From the sequence record MT446423.1: a stretch of DNA of 64,000 bases. One strand, written 5' to 3'. Below are positions 5,696 to 13,631 of the stretch, one piece after another. The notes below the pieces were generated by a model that saw nothing but the letters and a program-made list of their open reading frames with translations, searched no databases and was not told where the DNA came from. Within the stretch, counting starts at the first letter, position 1. The number at the start of each line of letters is the position of its first letter. A program made the translations under genes and the position numbers. The DNA comes from Escherichia virus TH58.

Positions 5696-5769
5696 GGCCC
5701 TGTAGCTCAATGGTTAGCAGCAGTCCCCTCATAAGGGAAAGGTTACCAGTTCGAATCTGGTCTGGGCCA
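5696..5769 (+). tRNA. tRNA with CAU anticodon (Met or Ile-type)
   Basis: Hand-folded cloverleaf: acceptor GGCCCTG/CTGGGCC (one T-T mismatch), T-arm ACCAG-TTCGAATC-TGGT, anticodon loop CTCATAA; no encoded CCA. Confidence 0.65.
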
Positions 5770-5775
5770 TATATT

Positions 5776-5852
<77 letters not shown>

Positions 5853-7184: not shown

Positions 7185-7688
7185 ATGAGTCTTTATACTG
7201 AACTGAATAAAAAATCTGAAGAATCTGCTGAAACTATTTTTAAAAACGTGCAAAAACGTATTTTAGAAAAGATGTATAACGCTGCATCTAAAGGTGAAAA
7301 ATCTTGCCGGTTCCCGATGAGGTGTTCCTCCGATTTATGCGCAAATACTATTGAATGGCTGGAAAGTGAAGGTCTTACGGTAGAGAAAAACCCGGCGACT
7401 TCTATTGACAGCGAATCATATATTAGTATTTCTTGGGATAAATCAAGGGTAGAAGAGAAAGATGGTGATTGGGTTGTAGATGTTAAAACTTCTGATGGTG
7501 GACGTTCTGTTGAAGTTTCAGCTGTAGTTAAAGGTACCCACGAACAAAGGACTTGGGGTTGGGGTGGTGAAGAAAAAGAAATTGTTCTTAGTGTGATTGC
7601 CAGGTCAACTAGTAATAAAATTGCACAAAGCATCATTGACGCTGCAATTGCTGAAGCAGAAAAAATTTGCAAAATTAAAAATAAATGA
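7185..7688 (+). CDS. Hypothetical protein
   Basis: 167 aa, RBS AGGAAAA; bracketed by a terminator upstream and a promoter downstream. Confidence 0.55.
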   Translation: MSLYTELNKKSEESAETIFKNVQKRILEKMYNAASKGEKSCRFPMRCSSDLCANTIEWLESEGLTVEKNPATSIDSESYISISWDKSRVEEKDGDWVVDVKTSDGGRSVEVSAVVKGTHEQRTWGWGGEEKEIVLSVIARSTSNKIAQSIIDAAIAEAEKICKIKNK

Positions 7689-7745
7689 TGTACAAACGCC
7701 AAGGATGGTGATATGATTACTCCACCAACAAATGAGGAAAACAAA

Positions 7746-7994
7746 ATGTTTAAGTCTGATATCGAACAAGCTAAAGAAATCGCCTCAGAATACTTTGGTT
7801 CATTCTTACGTCTTTTTGGAGAAATTCCTGAATTTAATTCTGCATCAGAATCTGCGGAAGCTTTAAAGGCCATTGAAAATATTATTTTGGAAGACCTTAA
7901 ATCTTTCGACGGTTCTAATCTTTCGGCACTTCCTCGTATAATCGATATCCATGTTCTGGATAAAATGGAAGAGATTATTAATTCGTACAAATAA
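7746..7994 (+). CDS. Hypothetical acidic protein
   Basis: ATG 7746 with GAGGAAA RBS; the track start at 7713 lies inside the promoter-like cassette. Confidence 0.45.
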   Translation: MFKSDIEQAKEIASEYFGSFLRLFGEIPEFNSASESAEALKAIENIILEDLKSFDGSNLSALPRIIDIHVLDKMEEIINSYK

Positions 7995-8024
7995 GTGTAC
8001 AAACTCTTGAGAGCAGAGTATAAT
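7995..8024 (+). promoter_or_regulatory. Early promoter inside hairpin GAGAGC...GCTCTC (cassette repeated at 40344)
   Basis: ACAAACTCTTGAGAGCAGAGTATAATGCTCTC; near-identical copy at 40344-40380. Confidence 0.5.
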
Positions 8025-8066
8025 GCTCTCGTTGGATAATAAAACCACCAATTGAAAGGTAATAAT

Positions 8067-8660
8067 ATGAACACACTAAAGAAACTTGTTGAATTCATCC
8101 GCACTAAACTGGGTACTGCTATGGCTAAAAATCTGACTGTCGAAGAACAGTATAACGCAGCCGCAGATAAGTTGATTACCCAAATCAAAGAACTAAAAAC
8201 GGCTTCTGTTAAATCTATTAATGAAGAAAAACGTATTCGCGAACTTGCTAATGAAAAGAACAAGCAAGCTGCTTCTAAGGAACGTGAAATTCGTAAGCTC
8301 CTGGCTGAAGGACAAGATGTTACCATGCATGCTAAGCTTGGTCTTCTGTATCGTCGAACTGCCGAACAACTTAATACAAAAGCTGCCGGGTATGCCGCTA
8401 TGCGAATTGAAATTGCTCGTAAGGTGGTTGAACTTGATGATGCTCGTCAGAATCTGGCAATCAAACTCGAATACATTCGTGAAACTCGAGCAGCTAATGC
8501 CCTTGGTATCTCTACGGCTGATGATGTAATTGAAATCGCTGCACTGACTAAGGTTGATATCGAAGACACTCTGACTCGTGTTGAAACGTTCAATGGCACT
8601 CCAACCGGTGTCGAAACCACTTCTGCTGATGTACAAGAATATATTAACTCTTTGAAATAA
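8067..8660 (+). CDS. Coiled-coil protein, function unknown
   Basis: ATG 8067 after AAAGG; heptad-rich, K/E-rich sequence; 197 aa. Confidence 0.5.
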
Positions 8661-8709
8661 AATAATACGGAGGACTCCGGTCCTCCTTTTGGATAATAAA
8701 GGAGTTAAC

Positions 8710-9306
8710 ATGCGAAACCAAAATAATGATATTGACTCGATGTTCGAAGAGTTCCGAAATAAGGTAAATCCACCTACGTCTTTAGTTGATTCATTACGAT
8801 ATATTGCAACTGGACGTAAATGGTACTGGTCGTCTTCTTATGAGACAACTGAATATGCAAATAACCGAAAATCTTTATTAGCCCCAGGTATTATGATTCA
8901 TGATATCGGAGCTATTGCTAAACTAGTTGCAGACCATGATATTAGATTCACTGATTTCGTTGCTCCTACGTGGTCTGTTTGTTGTTTAAACACTGAATGG
9001 GACTATATCAGTGAACGCTCTGAAGATTATTATGGTTTTAGAGATAAGCTCTTAAGGTCTAACATGTTTTATATCGATACTGAAGTCCTAGTCGATAATA
9101 AAAAATATTACTTTACGTTAATCGTCGATTCTGAAACTATGTATGAAGGCAAGCCTTTGCTTAAAAGAGTTGATGCTTTAAGTGCTATTGATGCGCTTTA
9201 TGAAACTATGGTTGTTAGTCCTAATTTCACTAACAATTTAATCCTTGAGCAATTTATTATGGAATGTAGAGAATATGTCAAAGCCAACCCTATACATGCC
9301 AAGTAA
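8710..9306 (+). CDS. Hypothetical protein with C-terminal QFIMECR motif
   Basis: ATG 8710 after AAGGAG; C-terminal region shares the motif of the junction-cassette family. Confidence 0.55.
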   Translation: MRNQNNDIDSMFEEFRNKVNPPTSLVDSLRYIATGRKWYWSSSYETTEYANNRKSLLAPGIMIHDIGAIAKLVADHDIRFTDFVAPTWSVCCLNTEWDYISERSEDYYGFRDKLLRSNMFYIDTEVLVDNKKYYFTLIVDSETMYEGKPLLKRVDALSAIDALYETMVVSPNFTNNLILEQFIMECREYVKANPIHAK

Positions 9307-9670
9307 GCCCTGGGCATACGAATACAAACGTAAATTAATTCCTAATGAAGTGTTGTTTGGTCCTATTTTAGCTTTAGCATTTTTAATCTTTATGATTATA
9401 GGAGCTATTTTAGATTCCAATAAAGTTATATCGTCTGATGCAGTGTTTTTACTTATTATAGTCGGGTCGTTTATTGTACCATTTTTATTAATGCCTATTA
9501 ACTGGGTGGGATATTGGTACCAAGGACGTCATCATAGAGCCCGATTAAGAGAATGGAAAGTTCAGTGCGCAAAAGCCCAAGCTCAGTATGACGAAGCTGT
9601 TAAAAAGTATGAATATGAAGAAGCTATGGAATTCGTTAAGGAAATAAGATGCAAAAGCCTCAACTCTTAA
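9275..9670 (+). CDS. Small membrane protein with C-terminal EFVKEIRCK motif
   Basis: Two predicted TM helices; start assignment uncertain (ATG 9275 chosen). Confidence 0.45.
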   Translation: MSKPTLYMPSKPWAYEYKRKLIPNEVLFGPILALAFLIFMIIGAILDSNKVISSDAVFLLIIVGSFIVPFLLMPINWVGYWYQGRHHRARLREWKVQCAKAQAQYDEAVKKYEYEEAMEFVKEIRCKSLNS

Positions 9671-10008
9671 CCGTATGGCCTTCTCTTGGTGAGAACATTC
9701 TAATTTTTATTATGAGTATTGGCATGGGATTTGCCTTTGGACTAGTTGGATTTCTTATTGACGGTGTTGTGTTAGGATTTATAGGGAACACCGGTGGATT
9801 CACAGACCAATGGCAGGACTTACGGTATACCCAAGCCTTTGCATCCATCGCATCCTTTTGTACTGTAGTCTATTTTTACTATGATTTTATAAGCCATAAC
9901 AAGAAAAATAAAAAGGTTTACGCTTCTCAAATGATTAGTTATAATGAACTCCTAGCTAGACGTGAAAATGAAACAATAGAAAACTTTATTAAGGAATGTA
10001 GAAAATGA
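9649..10008 (+). CDS. Small membrane protein ending ENFIKECRK
   Basis: AAGGA RBS; two hydrophobic helices; conserved C-terminal tail. Confidence 0.55.
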   Translation: MQKPQLLTVWPSLGENILIFIMSIGMGFAFGLVGFLIDGVVLGFIGNTGGFTDQWQDLRYTQAFASIASFCTVVYFYYDFISHNKKNKKVYASQMISYNELLARRENETIENFIKECRK

Positions 10009-10310
10009 GTAAGATTATTGAAATTAAAGTACCAGAGTTTAATGATGCCAAATCCGCTTCAGATGCAATTTATAAACTTCTGAATCAAGCTGAACGTATC
10101 GAAGAAGAGGCAACAAAGATCGCAGACCAATACGCCGTATCATTTTCTGTAGGTGATTATGGTAGCGGTCGTACTTATTATCCTAAGGGTGAAATCGTAT
10201 CCCAGTGGATGAAAGATGAAATTGAAAATAATGGTGGCGATGTTAAGCGTGAAGGTAATGGTTACGTTATTACTGAAGGTGCTTGGGTTTCGTCTTCTGC
10301 GTTGTGCTAA
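10005..10310 (+). CDS. Small acidic protein, paralog 1 of 3 (C-terminal GAWVSSSALC)
   Basis: Start overlaps upstream stop; shared C-terminal motif with the next two ORFs. Confidence 0.55.
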   Translation: MSKIIEIKVPEFNDAKSASDAIYKLLNQAERIEEEATKIADQYAVSFSVGDYGSGRTYYPKGEIVSQWMKDEIENNGGDVKREGNGYVITEGAWVSSSALC

Positions 10311-10321
10311 GGGGAATCATT

Positions 10322-10594
10322 ATGTCTAAAGAACAAACCGAACTGGCTGAAGCTGTAGCAAAAATCTATGCAGCTATTGAGGCTGCCAAAGAAATTGCTG
10401 ATAAACAAAACACAACATTCGACTTGTGTCCAGCTTATGGTATGGGCGGAACCTATCATTCACCCGGACAACTTAAAGCCGATCTTGAACGTTGTACAAA
10501 AAACGGCTATGCTGAATGGGCTGACGTTTACCAATACGACTACAATCTGAGCCTCGAAACTGGTGGTTGGATTGCATCTTCTCACACTTGTTAA
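10322..10594 (+). CDS. Small acidic protein, paralog 2 of 3 (C-terminal GGWIASSHTC)
   Basis: ATG 10322 after AAGGGG RBS. Confidence 0.55.
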   Translation: MSKEQTELAEAVAKIYAAIEAAKEIADKQNTTFDLCPAYGMGGTYHSPGQLKADLERCTKNGYAEWADVYQYDYNLSLETGGWIASSHTC

Positions 10595-10603
10595 GGAAAC
10601 CAT

Positions 10604-10801
10604 ATGTCTCGTGAATTAGATTGTGCTGTACGTACGGCAGTAGCTGCTCTGGAAAACCTGTTCCAAATTGCAACAGAAGAACGCGAAGAAGTTACATTAT
10701 GGATTGAAGATAACGCAGGTCTGAATCTCCAGAACGCAATCTCGGTATCAAATAATAGTATTACTGTTCAAGGCTGGGTATCATCTAGTTATTCTTGCTA
10801 A
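10604..10801 (+). CDS. Small acidic protein, paralog 3 of 3 (C-terminal QGWVSSSYSC)
   Basis: AAGGAAA RBS; same C-terminal signature. Confidence 0.55.
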   Translation: MSRELDCAVRTAVAALENLFQIATEEREEVTLWIEDNAGLNLQNAISVSNNSITVQGWVSSSYSC

Positions 10802-10805
10802 AACA

Positions 10806-10835
10806 GTTTACAACAAGATAGGGCTATGTTATAGT
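10806..10835 (+). promoter_or_regulatory. Early promoter GTTTAC / TATAGT with inverted repeat GGACTAT...TAGTCC
   Basis: GTTTAC 10806-10811, 18-nt spacer, TATAGT. Confidence 0.5.
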
Positions 10836-10863
10836 AGTCCTATCAAATTAAATGGAGTCCACA

Positions 10864-11103
10864 ATGATTTATTACGAAAGTGTTGGAACCAAAGTGGTTG
10901 GTAAAACCATTACTCGTGAAAAGTTTGCTAAGATATTCGATATGCGTTATAAAAAATCTGAACACAAAGGCATTCGATTCGAAGATGCGCACTGTACAAT
11001 TTGCCCTTATAATGAAGACATAAATGGTACAATCGTTCCATTGGTAGAGGCTTCACACGATGACCTCTGGGATGAATATGATATCGCATGTCGTGAAATT
11101 TAA
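10864..11103 (+). CDS. Hypothetical protein
   Basis: ATG 10864 after GGAG; 79 aa. Confidence 0.45.
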   Translation: MIYYESVGTKVVGKTITREKFAKIFDMRYKKSEHKGIRFEDAHCTICPYNEDINGTIVPLVEASHDDLWDEYDIACREI

Positions 11104-11131
11104 GTTAATGAATTAATCCGAGGAAAATATT

Positions 11132-12088
11132 ATGATGTTAGTTATTGGTTCTCGTGCACTTCACTATCACGGTCTTATTGATTCTAATGCTATCAAAAAT
11201 AGTGACTGGGACTTTATTGCAGACCAAGGTTCTTGGAATGCATTTAAAAATCAAATGATGGGTGTATATGTTCATCAAGATAACCCTGATGTCCAAGTTT
11301 TCAAATGCTTCCATAACGGACGCGAAACTCATTTTGAAGCATATATTGTTCCGGCAATCACTAATGTCCGTGAATTAGTAGGTGAACTCACTCCTGAAGA
11401 TTTCACGTCTTCTTATGACCTTTTAAAATACGCCAAGAAAAATTTGTCTAAAGATCATTTGAACGGGTTTTACTGGGCAACTCCTGAGATGTGTCTTGCA
11501 ATTAAGATGTCTCATCGTTTCAAGAAAAATAATCCATTCTTTTTAAAGACTATGAACCATATTCAGTATCTTCGTGGTAAAGGTGTTACACTGAACGATG
11601 AACTTACTGAAATTATGCTGAAACGCCAGAAAGAAACCTTGAACTATGCTCACCCAGTTCTTGACACTTCTAAAAGTGCGTTCTTTAAAGATGACATCTA
11701 TACTTATGACCATGATACTATTCATGAAGCCATTGCACTAACAGACCGTCCAGCGTATACATTTTATATGAAAGACGGTTCTGAAGTCATGACCTCACGT
11801 GAGAAGTTCGAATCATTACCAGAAATGGTCAAATTGGCCGGTGTATATGAAGAATCATGTGTACTAGCATTAGAACGTTCTCAGATTCCTAATGACTTTA
11901 AAATTAACCCTGAAGCCAGTTTTATGATGGCATTGGAAAAAGTCTGTACAAGCATCACCTCCGGTTGGTTCCGTGAGTACGCATACGAGAACTATTATGA
12001 AGTAGTGGCTATGTATCATAAGCTCGGCAAAAATGATTACGTCAAACGTTTCAAACAAAATTTCCATATGGTAAAACCTTTCAAATAG
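11132..12088 (+). CDS. Putative nucleotidyltransferase-fold protein
   Basis: N-terminal VIGSRALHYHGL...SDWDF resembles the GS-x(n)-DhDh signature of pol-beta-superfamily nucleotidyltransferases; GAGGA RBS; 318 aa. Confidence 0.45.
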   Translation: MMLVIGSRALHYHGLIDSNAIKNSDWDFIADQGSWNAFKNQMMGVYVHQDNPDVQVFKCFHNGRETHFEAYIVPAITNVRELVGELTPEDFTSSYDLLKYAKKNLSKDHLNGFYWATPEMCLAIKMSHRFKKNNPFFLKTMNHIQYLRGKGVTLNDELTEIMLKRQKETLNYAHPVLDTSKSAFFKDDIYTYDHDTIHEAIALTDRPAYTFYMKDGSEVMTSREKFESLPEMVKLAGVYEESCVLALERSQIPNDFKINPEASFMMALEKVCTSITSGWFREYAYENYYEVVAMYHKLGKNDYVKRFKQNFHMVKPFK

Positions 12089-12100
12089 TTTCGCAAAGCT

Positions 12101-12130
12101 GTTTACAACATGATAGGACTATGTTATAGT
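12101..12130 (+). promoter_or_regulatory. Early promoter GTTTAC / TATAGT with inverted repeat
   Basis: GTTTACAACATGATAGGACTATGTTATAGTAGTCCTAT. Confidence 0.5.
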
Positions 12131-12158
12131 AGTCCTATTAAAACATGAGGAGAATATT

Positions 12159-12464
12159 ATGAAATTAGGCGAAACCAACCGAATTGGTCTTTTAACAATA
12201 TTTGCATCACCTTTTTACGCAGCTCTTTCTGTTGCAGTATTACAAAAGGCTTACGATATGGATGGTGTTCCTGGTTTTGTATTCTTATCGCCGTTTTTGC
12301 TATTCGTTGGAGCATTGTTATTATATGCCACGACTAGTTTCGACCATAATGTCTGGGTCAATTATAAATGTAAATTGTCTGAAGAAGAACACGCGGAAGC
12401 TCGTAAAAAAGCTATTGAATCTACCAATCTAGAAAATTTCATTAAAGAATGTCGAGGAAAATAA
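12159..12464 (+). CDS. Small membrane protein ending ENFIKECRGK
   Basis: Two TM helices; conserved C-terminal tail. Confidence 0.55.
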   Translation: MKLGETNRIGLLTIFASPFYAALSVAVLQKAYDMDGVPGFVFLSPFLLFVGALLLYATTSFDHNVWVNYKCKLSEEEHAEARKKAIESTNLENFIKECRGK

Positions 12465-12465
12465 T

Positions 12466-13152
12466 ATGAATAGTTCTAAAGTGTTTAATAGTCAAGCTCG
12501 TGCAGTAGGTGGTTTTGCTCATGCGATTAAAAACGACCAGATTAAAAACGAGCCTATGTTCTTTAACTGTGATTTGAATTTTGCTTTTGATAATGGCGGC
12601 CCAATTACTCGTAGCTTTATCCAAAATCTTCCCGACGATTGGAAAGACTCGGATGTAGTATTTGATTCACGAGTTCACATGCTGATGCCTGGTTGGTATC
12701 CTGCTATTCCTGGATATCACCATGATGATGTTCCTCGCCCTGATATTCCAGTTGGTCAACACTTTATTACTGCAGGACAACCTGATTATGACAACCCTCG
12801 TTACCATTCTGAACATATTCTTGGTCTTGTTAACGCTGATGTGTGTCCTACTCATTTTGCAACAGGAACTGCAGAGTTCAGTCAGATTCCTGATGGCGAA
12901 CTTATCTATCGCCAGTGGCACAAAGAAGTCCTCGAAAAAATCGAAAAAGGCGAACTAGAGAAATGGGAAGCTCCAGATCATACTCTTCTTCAGTTTGATT
13001 GGCAAACATGGCACACTGGTTCTCGTGCAATTAGTAATGGATGGCGTTGGTTCGGCCGTGTATCTCGTAATACAGACCGAGTTAAAAAGATTACCAATGA
13101 AATTCGTGTCAACGCTCAAGTTTATCTGGAATTCCCTATGGAAGGCTGGTAA
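12466..13152 (+). CDS. Hypothetical protein
   Basis: 228 aa, start 2 nt after upstream stop. Confidence 0.55.
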   Translation: MNSSKVFNSQARAVGGFAHAIKNDQIKNEPMFFNCDLNFAFDNGGPITRSFIQNLPDDWKDSDVVFDSRVHMLMPGWYPAIPGYHHDDVPRPDIPVGQHFITAGQPDYDNPRYHSEHILGLVNADVCPTHFATGTAEFSQIPDGELIYRQWHKEVLEKIEKGELEKWEAPDHTLLQFDWQTWHTGSRAISNGWRWFGRVSRNTDRVKKITNEIRVNAQVYLEFPMEGW

Positions 13153-13631
13153 TGATTAACAATAATATAGACGATGGCAATGAAGGTATTTCATACTATT
13201 CAGTAGATTGGACAGGATGTCCATCCTACTTAGTGAAACATATTTGCCAAGAATTTAAAATCGACCAGCCAGCAGGTATTATCGTGAACAGATACATTAA
13301 TGGATATCAACCTATCGATGAAGTAATACGAACAACTCAAGCTGAGCTTGAAAGGTTTTTCAATAAGTGCCAATGGATAACAGGATGGATTATATTTGTA
13401 CCATCTATATGGTTTTTCAGTACTAAGGTGAGTTCTTTCGGTTTTGTTGATATTATTGCTATCTTATTAGCATCTAGTATCATAAGTGTTGTTGGTGGCA
13501 TCATCGGCGGCGGTACCGCCGCCATCATTATTAATCTTATTAAAAGTAGTTTACAAGAACATAAAGACAAGATAAAGGCCAAGAATAATGAAGTTGAACG
13601 TTTTATTACCGAATGCAGGAATTTGAGATGA
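13152..13631 (+). CDS. Membrane protein ending ERFITECRNLR
   Basis: Hydrophobic and Gly-rich TM region; conserved C-terminal tail. Confidence 0.55.
   Translation: MINNNIDDGNEGISYYSVDWTGCPSYLVKHICQEFKIDQPAGIIVNRYINGYQPIDEVIRTTQAELERFFNKCQWITGWIIFVPSIWFFSTKVSSFGFVDIIAILLASSIISVVGGIIGGGTAAIIINLIKSSLQEHKDKIKAKNNEVERFITECRNLR

Follow-up and report, generated by a model that had tools for sequence, protein, structure and literature searches.

Three consecutive small open reading frames (ORFs), here called S1, S2 and S3, were found in tandem on the plus strand of a 64,000-nucleotide stretch of Escherichia virus TH58 (MT446423.1; the whole stretch is referred to as the window), followed by a gene encoding a nucleotidyltransferase (NTase) of the Pol-beta type. 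The window is 96-97% identical to Mosigvirus genomes (RB69-like T-even phages), and the three ORFs are genes of the early region of such a phage. The array, the C-terminal tails of its products and the enzyme gene are arranged as follows:

10005..10310, plus strand: S1, 101 amino acids (aa), PHROG 899, equivalent to RB69ORF139c+138c; ends GAWVSSSALC-stop and contains a YGSGRTYYP motif
10284..10307, plus strand: S1 tail, W94-V-S-S-S-A-L-C101
10322..10594, plus strand: S2, 90 aa from an ATG with a Shine-Dalgarno sequence, PHROG 899, equivalent to RB69ORF137c; ends GGWIASSHTC-stop and contains a YGMGGTYHSP motif
10568..10591, plus strand: S2 tail, W83-I-A-S-S-H-T-C90
10604..10801, plus strand: S3, 65 aa, PHROG 4882, equivalent to RB69ORF136c; ends QGWVSSSYSC-stop, with an N-terminal helix and without the YGxGxTY hairpin
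10775..10798, plus strand: S3 tail, W58-V-S-S-S-Y-S-C65
11132..12088, plus strand: 318-aa Pol-beta-type NTase, Pfam DUF7277 (N-terminal) and DUF7275 (C-terminal), PHROG 2141, equivalent to RB69ORF134c

A sequence-only reading of this DNA had described the three ORFs as a tandem triplication of small acidic proteins of 101, 90 and 65 aa that share a C-terminal motif with a terminal or near-terminal cysteine. Coordinates, lengths and acidity were confirmed from the sequence and the isoelectric points (pI 4.1-4.7, with a net charge of about -6.5), and the shared motif is real and well above what chance would give, Cys being the very last residue in all three proteins and not merely near the end. 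Indeed, when ORFs of 40 aa or more were collected from both strands of the window (373 in all), the pattern W..S...C-stop was found only in S1, S2 and S3. Each ORF has a ribosome-binding site (AAGGA, AAGGGGA and AAGGAAA, respectively), and profile matches were obtained to phrog_899 for S1 (1.3e-22) and S2 (1.1e-17) and to phrog_4882 for S3 (1.6e-36), neither family having an assigned function. The ratio of non-synonymous to synonymous polymorphism (pN/pS) against close relatives was 0-0.28 across the three genes, with a value of 0 for S1, indicating that they are under purifying selection.

The notion of a triplication held for part of the array. With their tails (the last ten residues) removed, S1 and S2 still aligned in hhalign with a probability of 98% (E = 7e-14), and they also share a second motif, Y-G-x-G-x-T-Y; from these sequence comparisons, both are clearly true paralogs. 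By contrast, S3 without its tail matched S1/S2 with a probability of 2-3%, and the features it has in common with them are the tail and the N-terminal helix. The family core, consisting of a long helix and an F-x-F...Y-G-x-G-x-T-Y hairpin, is present in S1 and S2, whereas the hairpin is missing in S3. The homology of S3 to S1 and S2 would therefore rest on the tail and on its position in the array, and is not demonstrable at sequence level once the tail is removed. Pairwise identity among the copies is 29-33%, and orthologs of each subfamily occur in other phage genera, which indicates ancient copies and no recent triplication.

All RB69 counterparts of these genes are labelled 'hypothetical' and sit between e.3 and e.2. 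In the RB69 reference (L001, AY303349, 5006-5312), the S1 ortholog is broken into ORF139c and ORF138c by one additional T that follows CAGTGG, and it also carries a Ser-to-Pro change at position W+4. The sequence suggests either a lesion or loss in the laboratory strain or a sequencing error. S1 is also present in the BASEL phage Bas47, as bas47_0236.

Sequence comparison places S1-S3 in a large, phage-only family of small acidic proteins. Word-indexed searches with S2 and S1 returned close relatives only; the distant ones were reached by an exhaustive profile search of 1.84 billion representative proteins, and the family comprises at least 214 clusters at the 50% identity level. The tail motif is near-universal in it: 133 of the 145 newly listed representatives, each at most 50% identical to the others, end W-x-x-S-x-x-x-C-stop, and the family pattern can be written W-x-x-S-[SN]-(0, 2 or 3 residues)-C-stop, which S1-S3 all fit. 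As a control for circularity, a hidden Markov model (HMM) was built from an alignment whose tail columns had been deleted and was run on the fetched loci. This tail-less HMM retrieved 161 ORFs (137 unique), and 135 of the 137 end exactly on Cys, the other 2 having Cys as the penultimate residue. Position W+3 was Ser in 135 of 135 members, while Cys made up only 0.8% of the remaining residues. Such a near-absolute stop right after Cys suggests that the free carboxylate, or the terminal position as such, may also matter.

The sequence-only reading had itself named an overlapping nucleotide signal, with no conservation of the protein, as the alternative source of the motif. Codon analysis of 122 distinct 27-nt tails ruled out this artefact. 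All six Ser codons (TCN as well as AGY) occur at the two Ser positions, Cys is encoded by both TGC and TGT, and all three stop codons were found. This variety at the Ser, Cys and stop codons implies that selection acts on the protein, and the motif is thus, on codon evidence, selected at protein level.

A minority subfamily of ~72-77 aa (L002, L003, L004, L006-L027; e.g., L003 2716-2934) ends with a shorter W-x-x-S-S-C-stop and has an internal W-x-x-S-S-C-YGEG about 25 residues ahead of the terminal copy. Some distant double-motif members hold three repeats of the unit, such as the one in L106 (...QWVSSDCEGEDGWSDSGCSDGDYDGGWSASSQSC). Family members are all named 'hypothetical' in databases; scans of the small proteins against Pfam, NCBIfam and PADLOC gave nothing significant, and literature searches found no paper in the library searched on this protein family, the DUFs or the RB69 ORF names. 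Sub-threshold Pfam matches to Peptidase_S78_2, E217_Gp32 and DUF6506 were dismissed as weak, and P0233, a 574-aa coiled-coil repeat protein matched on its helix, was discarded as a false positive of the profile search. The labels 'Prohead assembly scaffold protein', 'HNS-dependent protein' and 'Ig-like domain' attached to homologs look like annotation noise, and in phage F27 the 'sulfurtransferase' label at a BLAST match is that of the e.4 membrane protein and not of the trio.

The most informative fact about these genes, which was not part of the sequence-only reading, is their near-obligate synteny with the NTase gene, which starts 330 nt downstream of the array. Distant tblastn matches of S1 in Aeromonas phage 25, a Phapecoctavirus and a Pseudomonas phage showed the same arrangement, with two or three W...S...C-stop small ORFs followed by a homolog of the 318-aa NTase. 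In a census of 91 loci fetched through NTase homologs, all 225 ORFs with the strict motif (225/225) have the same orientation as the NTase gene and lie wholly upstream of it; the distance is up to 1 kb for 140 of them, 1-2 kb for 73 and 2-4 kb for 12. Zero motif ORFs were found downstream of the NTase in these loci, and none of the 3,179 minus-strand ORFs carries the motif. At least one copy was detected in 84 of the 91 loci, with 1-5 copies in each. Several diverged paralog subfamilies, each conserved across genera, stand beside a single NTase. The loci span T4-like phages, Phapecoctavirus, ~100-kb Pseudomonas phages, 355-371-kb jumbo-phage contigs and Acinetobacter Lazarusvirus, and the flanking genes vary by phage, the module being located between nrdD and nrdC.2 in Aeromonas phage 25 and between e.3 and e.2 in the window. 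In the reverse test, the NTase was directly downstream for 5 of 7 distant small-protein representatives. The array of Cys-terminated small proteins and the MenT-like NTase constitute a conserved two-component phage module.

The NTase itself belongs to a family with more than 2,100 clusters at 90% identity and 733 cultured-phage records. The Pol-beta signature hG[GS]...DxD...E is represented by G6-S7, D25-x-D27 and E69, invariant in 41 homologs; even with the most distant homologs added, G6, S7, D25 and D27 do not vary. In the C-terminal helical domain, many polar residues, among them H128, K139, R165, H174, H194-D195, H198, C243 and C272, are invariant in the same 41 sequences. The protein (pI 6.5 in the window) adopts the Pol-beta NTase fold, its nearest solved folds being the toxins MenT1, MenT3 and MenT4 (MenT/AbiEii), and its fold neighbours transfer a nucleoside monophosphate (NMP) to hydroxyl groups on tRNA 3' ends, aminoglycosides or lincosamides. 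The AbiEii/DUF1814 Pfam model was not matched, only DUF7277 and DUF7275 being returned at E <= 1, and the NCBIfam and PADLOC scans gave no match either. The 3' ends of tRNAs are the substrates to which MenT enzymes add nucleotides, and the product of the upstream gene, the short helical protein MenA1, blocks MenT1 (PMC10435456).

Every member of the array-associated NTase clade has C243 and C272, together with HRFKKN and YxHP, none of which occurs in a distant array-less clade, a co-variation seen in few, phylogenetically non-independent sequences. Both Cys occupy mirrored positions on adjacent antiparallel helices, and they are probably neighbours in space, as judged from helix positions and not from coordinates. 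The distant, shorter homologs (L095, L096, L097 and L098, from Streptomyces, Gordonia, KVP40 and DSS3_VP1 phages) have no small-protein array. Neighbours of array-less homologs include RNA ligase 2 and a metallophosphoesterase (DSS3_VP1), polynucleotide kinase (Streptomyces phage BillNye) and a tRNA array (Gordonia phage OneUp). This RNA-repair and tRNA company fits an RNA-end activity of the NTase family.

With regard to the small proteins, the AlphaFold2 model of S1 (134-sequence alignment) reached a predicted local distance difference test (pLDDT) score of 94.2. It comprises a 29-residue N-terminal helix, a beta-hairpin with the Y-G-x-G-x-T-Y motif, a short helix and a three-stranded sheet, with Trp94 placed within the last beta-strand and S97-L100 forming a terminal helical turn. 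Structure searches with this fold found no solved relative and returned only uncharacterized family members. The model indicates that the motif is the closing element of a conserved small alpha/beta fold and not a loose tag. The sequence-only reading took the invariant Trp and the terminal Cys as hints of a functional tag. That the motif is functional agrees with the conservation seen at protein level, but it is predicted to close the fold (pLDDT 94) and not to be a tag appended to otherwise diverged proteins.

Further features were noted around the array and the enzyme gene:

8669-8686: terminator-like hairpin, consensus match only
10807..10835, plus strand: T4-early-type promoter-like site, TTTACA-N17-TATAGT with an upstream TG, between the array and the downstream genes; consensus match only
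10817-10844: 11-bp RNA hairpin (dG -16 kcal/mol, z -3.0) overlapping the first promoter-like site
10852..11103, plus strand: orf83, PHROG 3723 (no assigned function), between the array and the NTase gene
12102-12130: second promoter-like site, an identical match just past the NTase gene; consensus match only

In T4 itself e.3 directly abuts e.2, and the block 10005-13152 (S1, S2, S3, orf83, the 318-aa NTase, orf101 and orf228), in which all genes are co-directional, is therefore an insertion relative to T4. The product of orf83 contains C-x-x-C and ends ...C-R-E-I; its orthologs occupy the same position in other T4-like loci, with the endings ...Y-C-x-E-I or ...Y-V-A-E-I. Because orf83 is missing from the unrelated phages, its membership in the array-NTase module is uncertain. 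For orf101 and orf228, PHROG matches were only to families without assigned function.

A second paralog family surrounds the array, formed by e.5 (8689-9306), e.4 (9245-9670), e.3 (9649-10008), orf101 (12159-12464) and e.2 (13152-13631). The C-termini of these proteins carry an F-[IV]-x-E-C-R-like motif, for example ...IENFIKECRK, ...LENFIKECRGK and ...VERFITECRNLR. ORFs with this type of ending interleave with the genes for W-SS-C proteins in other T4-like loci (L008, L012, L016, L019), and not in unrelated phages. As in RB69, tRNA-Met (CAT; 5696-5769) and tRNA-Arg (TCT; 5776-5852) genes precede the array, at a distance of about 4.2 kb. A 377-aa minus-strand ORF (7193-8326) is probably a chance ORF, as it has no Pfam or family match and is antisense to plus-strand ORFs annotated in RB69. 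In some metagenomic and phage loci, the module has as neighbours NUDIX, NAMPT and PTH2 peptidyl-tRNA hydrolase genes (L105 186-3535), a gene for a Tad2-like protein (L110 4498-4764) or a putative ADP-ribosyltransferase gene (L094 5183-5497), all of them known or suspected counter-defence or nicotinamide adenine dinucleotide (NAD) genes.

Concerning function, a tentative preference is given to the reading that the small proteins are dedicated partners of the NTase, which covalently processes their tails. The contact between both components, the covalent modification and any role in infection are what we infer here, and the steps would be as follows. The small proteins would act as dedicated protein partners, the invariant tail being the part presented to the catalytic cleft of the NTase. 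This tail would then be covalently processed with a nucleoside triphosphate (NTP), the enzyme either nucleotidylylating the invariant Ser at its hydroxyl or activating the terminal Cys. In the early phase of infection, a single NTase would thereby 'arm' several diversified small proteins that act as effectors or carriers. Tail processing is favoured because the most conserved atoms of the family are nucleophiles (the Ser hydroxyl, the Cys thiol and the C-terminus), because several non-redundant paralog subfamilies accompany one enzyme, because the fold relatives of the NTase transfer NMP to hydroxyl groups, and because the Cys pair of the NTase tracks the array. A precedent for a protein hydroxyl as NTase primer also speaks in its favour, since HalB primes oligo-dA synthesis on a tyrosine, a protein hydroxyl thus serving as the acceptor (PMC13434031). 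The strict synteny, the outcome of the reverse test and the complete catalytic signature of the NTase count towards this reading as well.

Several observations weigh against this proposal. The tail is predicted to belong to a folded domain and not to be a free arm. Two of the 7 distant representatives have no NTase in the fetched flank, one being on a 305-kb jumbo contig and the other two genes upstream of the Tad2-like gene, and conversely an intact NTase has no small ORF within 4 kb in one lineage (L056/58/60/84) and in L017. The co-variation of the NTase Cys pair comes from few and phylogenetically non-independent sequences, and the closeness of C243 to C272 is judged from helix positions and not from coordinates. 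In addition, the closest structural relatives of the NTase are toxins under an upstream small antitoxin, an analogy that would favour regulation of the enzyme by the small proteins. Finally, nucleotidylylation of Ser would leave the exact Cys ending unexplained, and hence the variants with thiol or carboxylate activation, as well as a sulfur relay, stay alive.

Regulation of the antitoxin type, in which the small proteins would form non-covalent complexes with the NTase and thereby inhibit it or set the timing of its activity, as MenA1 blocks MenT1, is somewhat doubtful in its own right, and nearly as likely as tail processing. The terminal Cys and the Trp would serve as a pseudo-substrate or 'cysteine switch' that plugs the active site or a metal site. 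Besides the MenT1, MenT3 and MenT4 toxins being the nearest solved folds, the order of a small gene upstream and the NTase downstream is that of menA-menT, and the strong acidity of S1-S3 is to be expected of an occupant of a nucleic-acid-binding cleft. The 29-residue N-terminal helix predicted for S1 also resembles the 32-residue central helix that MenA1 lays across the MenT1 active sites (PMC10435456). Nevertheless, up to five diverged paralog subfamilies are kept across genera for each NTase, and such multiplicity would fit several substrates or effectors better than redundant inhibitors. The MenA1 C-terminus is dispensable, whereas the C-terminus is the most conserved part here; no sequence or fold similarity to MenA1 or AbiEi was found; the NTase occurs without an array in some phages; and, with a pI of 6.5, the NTase of the window is not basic.

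Alternatively, the small proteins could be independent effectors acting on host targets on their own, for instance as anti-defence inhibitors or sponges of nucleotide signals, with the Trp, Tyr, Gly-rich loop and Ser-Ser forming a ligand site and the linkage to the NTase reflecting a shared island of accessory early genes. We consider this unlikely. Their size, acidity, multiplicity and rapid diversification are like those of known phage anti-defence proteins, some copies neighbour a Tad2-like gene (L110) or NUDIX, NAMPT and PTH2 genes (L105), 2 of the 7 representatives lack a nearby NTase, and, compared with T4, the whole block is inserted into a hyperplastic region. However, hitch-hiking is a poor explanation for an upstream, same-strand position in 225 of 225 cases across phages without other common neighbours. 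Moreover, the Cys pair and other motifs of the NTase track the presence of the array, no PADLOC match was obtained, and fold searches returned no known anti-defence protein.

A further reading is a thiol or sulfur relay. The terminal Cys would carry a persulfide or thioester, in the manner of the C-terminal arm of DsrC/TusE or the end of ThiS/MoaD/Urm1, and the paralogs would form the relay, while the MenT-like enzyme would adenylate a nucleic acid or other acceptor and its own Cys pair would complete thiolation or transfer. The almost absolute position of the terminal Cys points in this direction, as do the two invariant Cys in the NTase C-terminal domain, which are specific to the array clade and mirrored on adjacent antiparallel helices, the MenT-like, tRNA-directed NTase fold, and the RNA ligase 2, polynucleotide kinase and tRNA arrays adjoining distant homologs. 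Known sulfur relays such as the Tus/MnmA pathway likewise use several small Cys proteins. On the other hand, to our knowledge no Pol-beta NTase activates a nucleobase or carboxylate for sulfur transfer, a cysteine desulfurase was not found in the module, the fold of the small proteins matches neither DsrC/TusE nor beta-grasp proteins, and the invariant Trp and Ser-Ser would be left unexplained. A sulfur relay is accordingly regarded as improbable.

The least convincing proposal is that S1-S3 are precursors similar to those of ribosomally synthesized and post-translationally modified peptides (RiPPs), with the tail cut off or cyclized (e.g., by Ser activation and elimination followed by Cys addition, giving a lanthionine- or aminovinyl-cysteine (AviCys)-type ring) and the rest serving as leader or scaffold; although several precursor-like genes precede a single enzyme, small thioether rings would fit the S-S-x-x-C and S-S-C spacings, a C-terminal Cys is a hallmark of AviCys peptides and the Cys/His of the NTase C-terminal domain could bind zinc like a cyclase, it is highly improbable given that conservation is the reverse of that in typical RiPPs, with an invariant 'core', that the proteins are predicted to be well folded, with 60-170 aa, that no recognised maturase (LanB/LanM/LanKC, YcaO, radical SAM), protease or exporter was detected in the block and the flanking genes scanned, and that a secreted peptide makes little sense for an early gene of a lytic phage.

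Returning to tail processing by the NTase, its most novel formulation would be a previously unrecognised kind of protein-modification system of phages, in which a MenT-like NTase with a Cys-pair C-terminal domain uses NTP on the Ser-Ser...Cys-COOH ends of proteins with a new fold. Such a system could yield conjugates of protein and nucleotide, possibly protein-primed oligonucleotides, or else a thiol/thioester carrier activated at its C-terminus. Taken as a whole, this scheme is rather unlikely, if still with a substantial chance that the chemistry is new; if true, it would provide a carrier analogous to ubiquitin-like and sulfur-relay proteins, built from unrelated parts and deployed early by many large virulent phages. 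The module is widespread in well-studied groups, including the RB69 lineage, JS98, Phapecoctavirus, Aeromonas and Acinetobacter T4-like phages and jumbo phages, and the near-absolute Cys ending, coupled with an enzyme that has tRNA 3'-end modifiers among its relatives, offers a sharp biochemical clue. Any of the answers considered above would show what this conserved early-gene module does in therapeutic-type phages and could reveal a new mechanism of protein modification or counter-defence.

Comparison with known systems shows partial likenesses. RiPP clusters with several precursor genes and one maturase are exemplified by the prochlorosins, and they resemble the module in the tandem small paralogs beside a single enzyme gene and in the Ser/Cys of the conserved segment. 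In contrast, leader-core peptides are encoded there and folded proteins here, the conserved and variable parts are inverted, the host genome is that of a lytic phage, and the block and flanking genes scanned contain no known maturase, protease or transporter. Small carriers with a reactive C-terminus include DsrC/TusE (Cys on a C-terminal arm), ThiS/MoaD/Urm1 (Gly-Gly at the C-terminus, activated through adenylation) and LysW (acidic, C-terminal EDWGE). Like the proteins described here, they are small and often acidic, the identity of their last residue and its exact placement, terminal or penultimate, are the most conserved feature, and they have a nucleotide-using enzyme as partner; the fold of the small proteins is not DsrC-like or beta-grasp according to the structure search. 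In the type VII toxin-antitoxin system MntA-HepT, the NTase AMPylates its partner protein. Unlike HepT, which is a HEPN RNase with an R-x4-6-H motif, the small proteins gave no HEPN match in Pfam, and their sequences show no such motif. In both MntA-HepT and the HalB enzyme of Hailong, a Pol-beta-type NTase acts on the hydroxyl of a protein side chain, and enzyme and acceptor are co-encoded (for HalB, PMC13434031).

The closest comparison is with the toxin-antitoxin system MenAT1 of Mycobacterium tuberculosis, consisting of the DUF1814 NTase MenT1 and the short MenA1. MenAT1 is chromosomal and has one small gene, whereas the module described here is phage-encoded and has one to five diverged small genes. 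The small proteins show no homology to MenA1, nor to AbiEi, MenA3 and MenA4, which have winged helix-turn-helix (wHTH) and kinase-like parts; with MenA1, whose C-terminus is dispensable, they have neither sequence nor fold in common, and they carry instead an invariant C-terminal W-x-x-S-S-x-x-C. The NTase differs from MenT1 in carrying a further conserved domain at its C-terminus, DUF7275, and it gave no match to Pfam DUF1814. What is already known of the module is the NTase superfamily and the design of an NTase with a small upstream partner.

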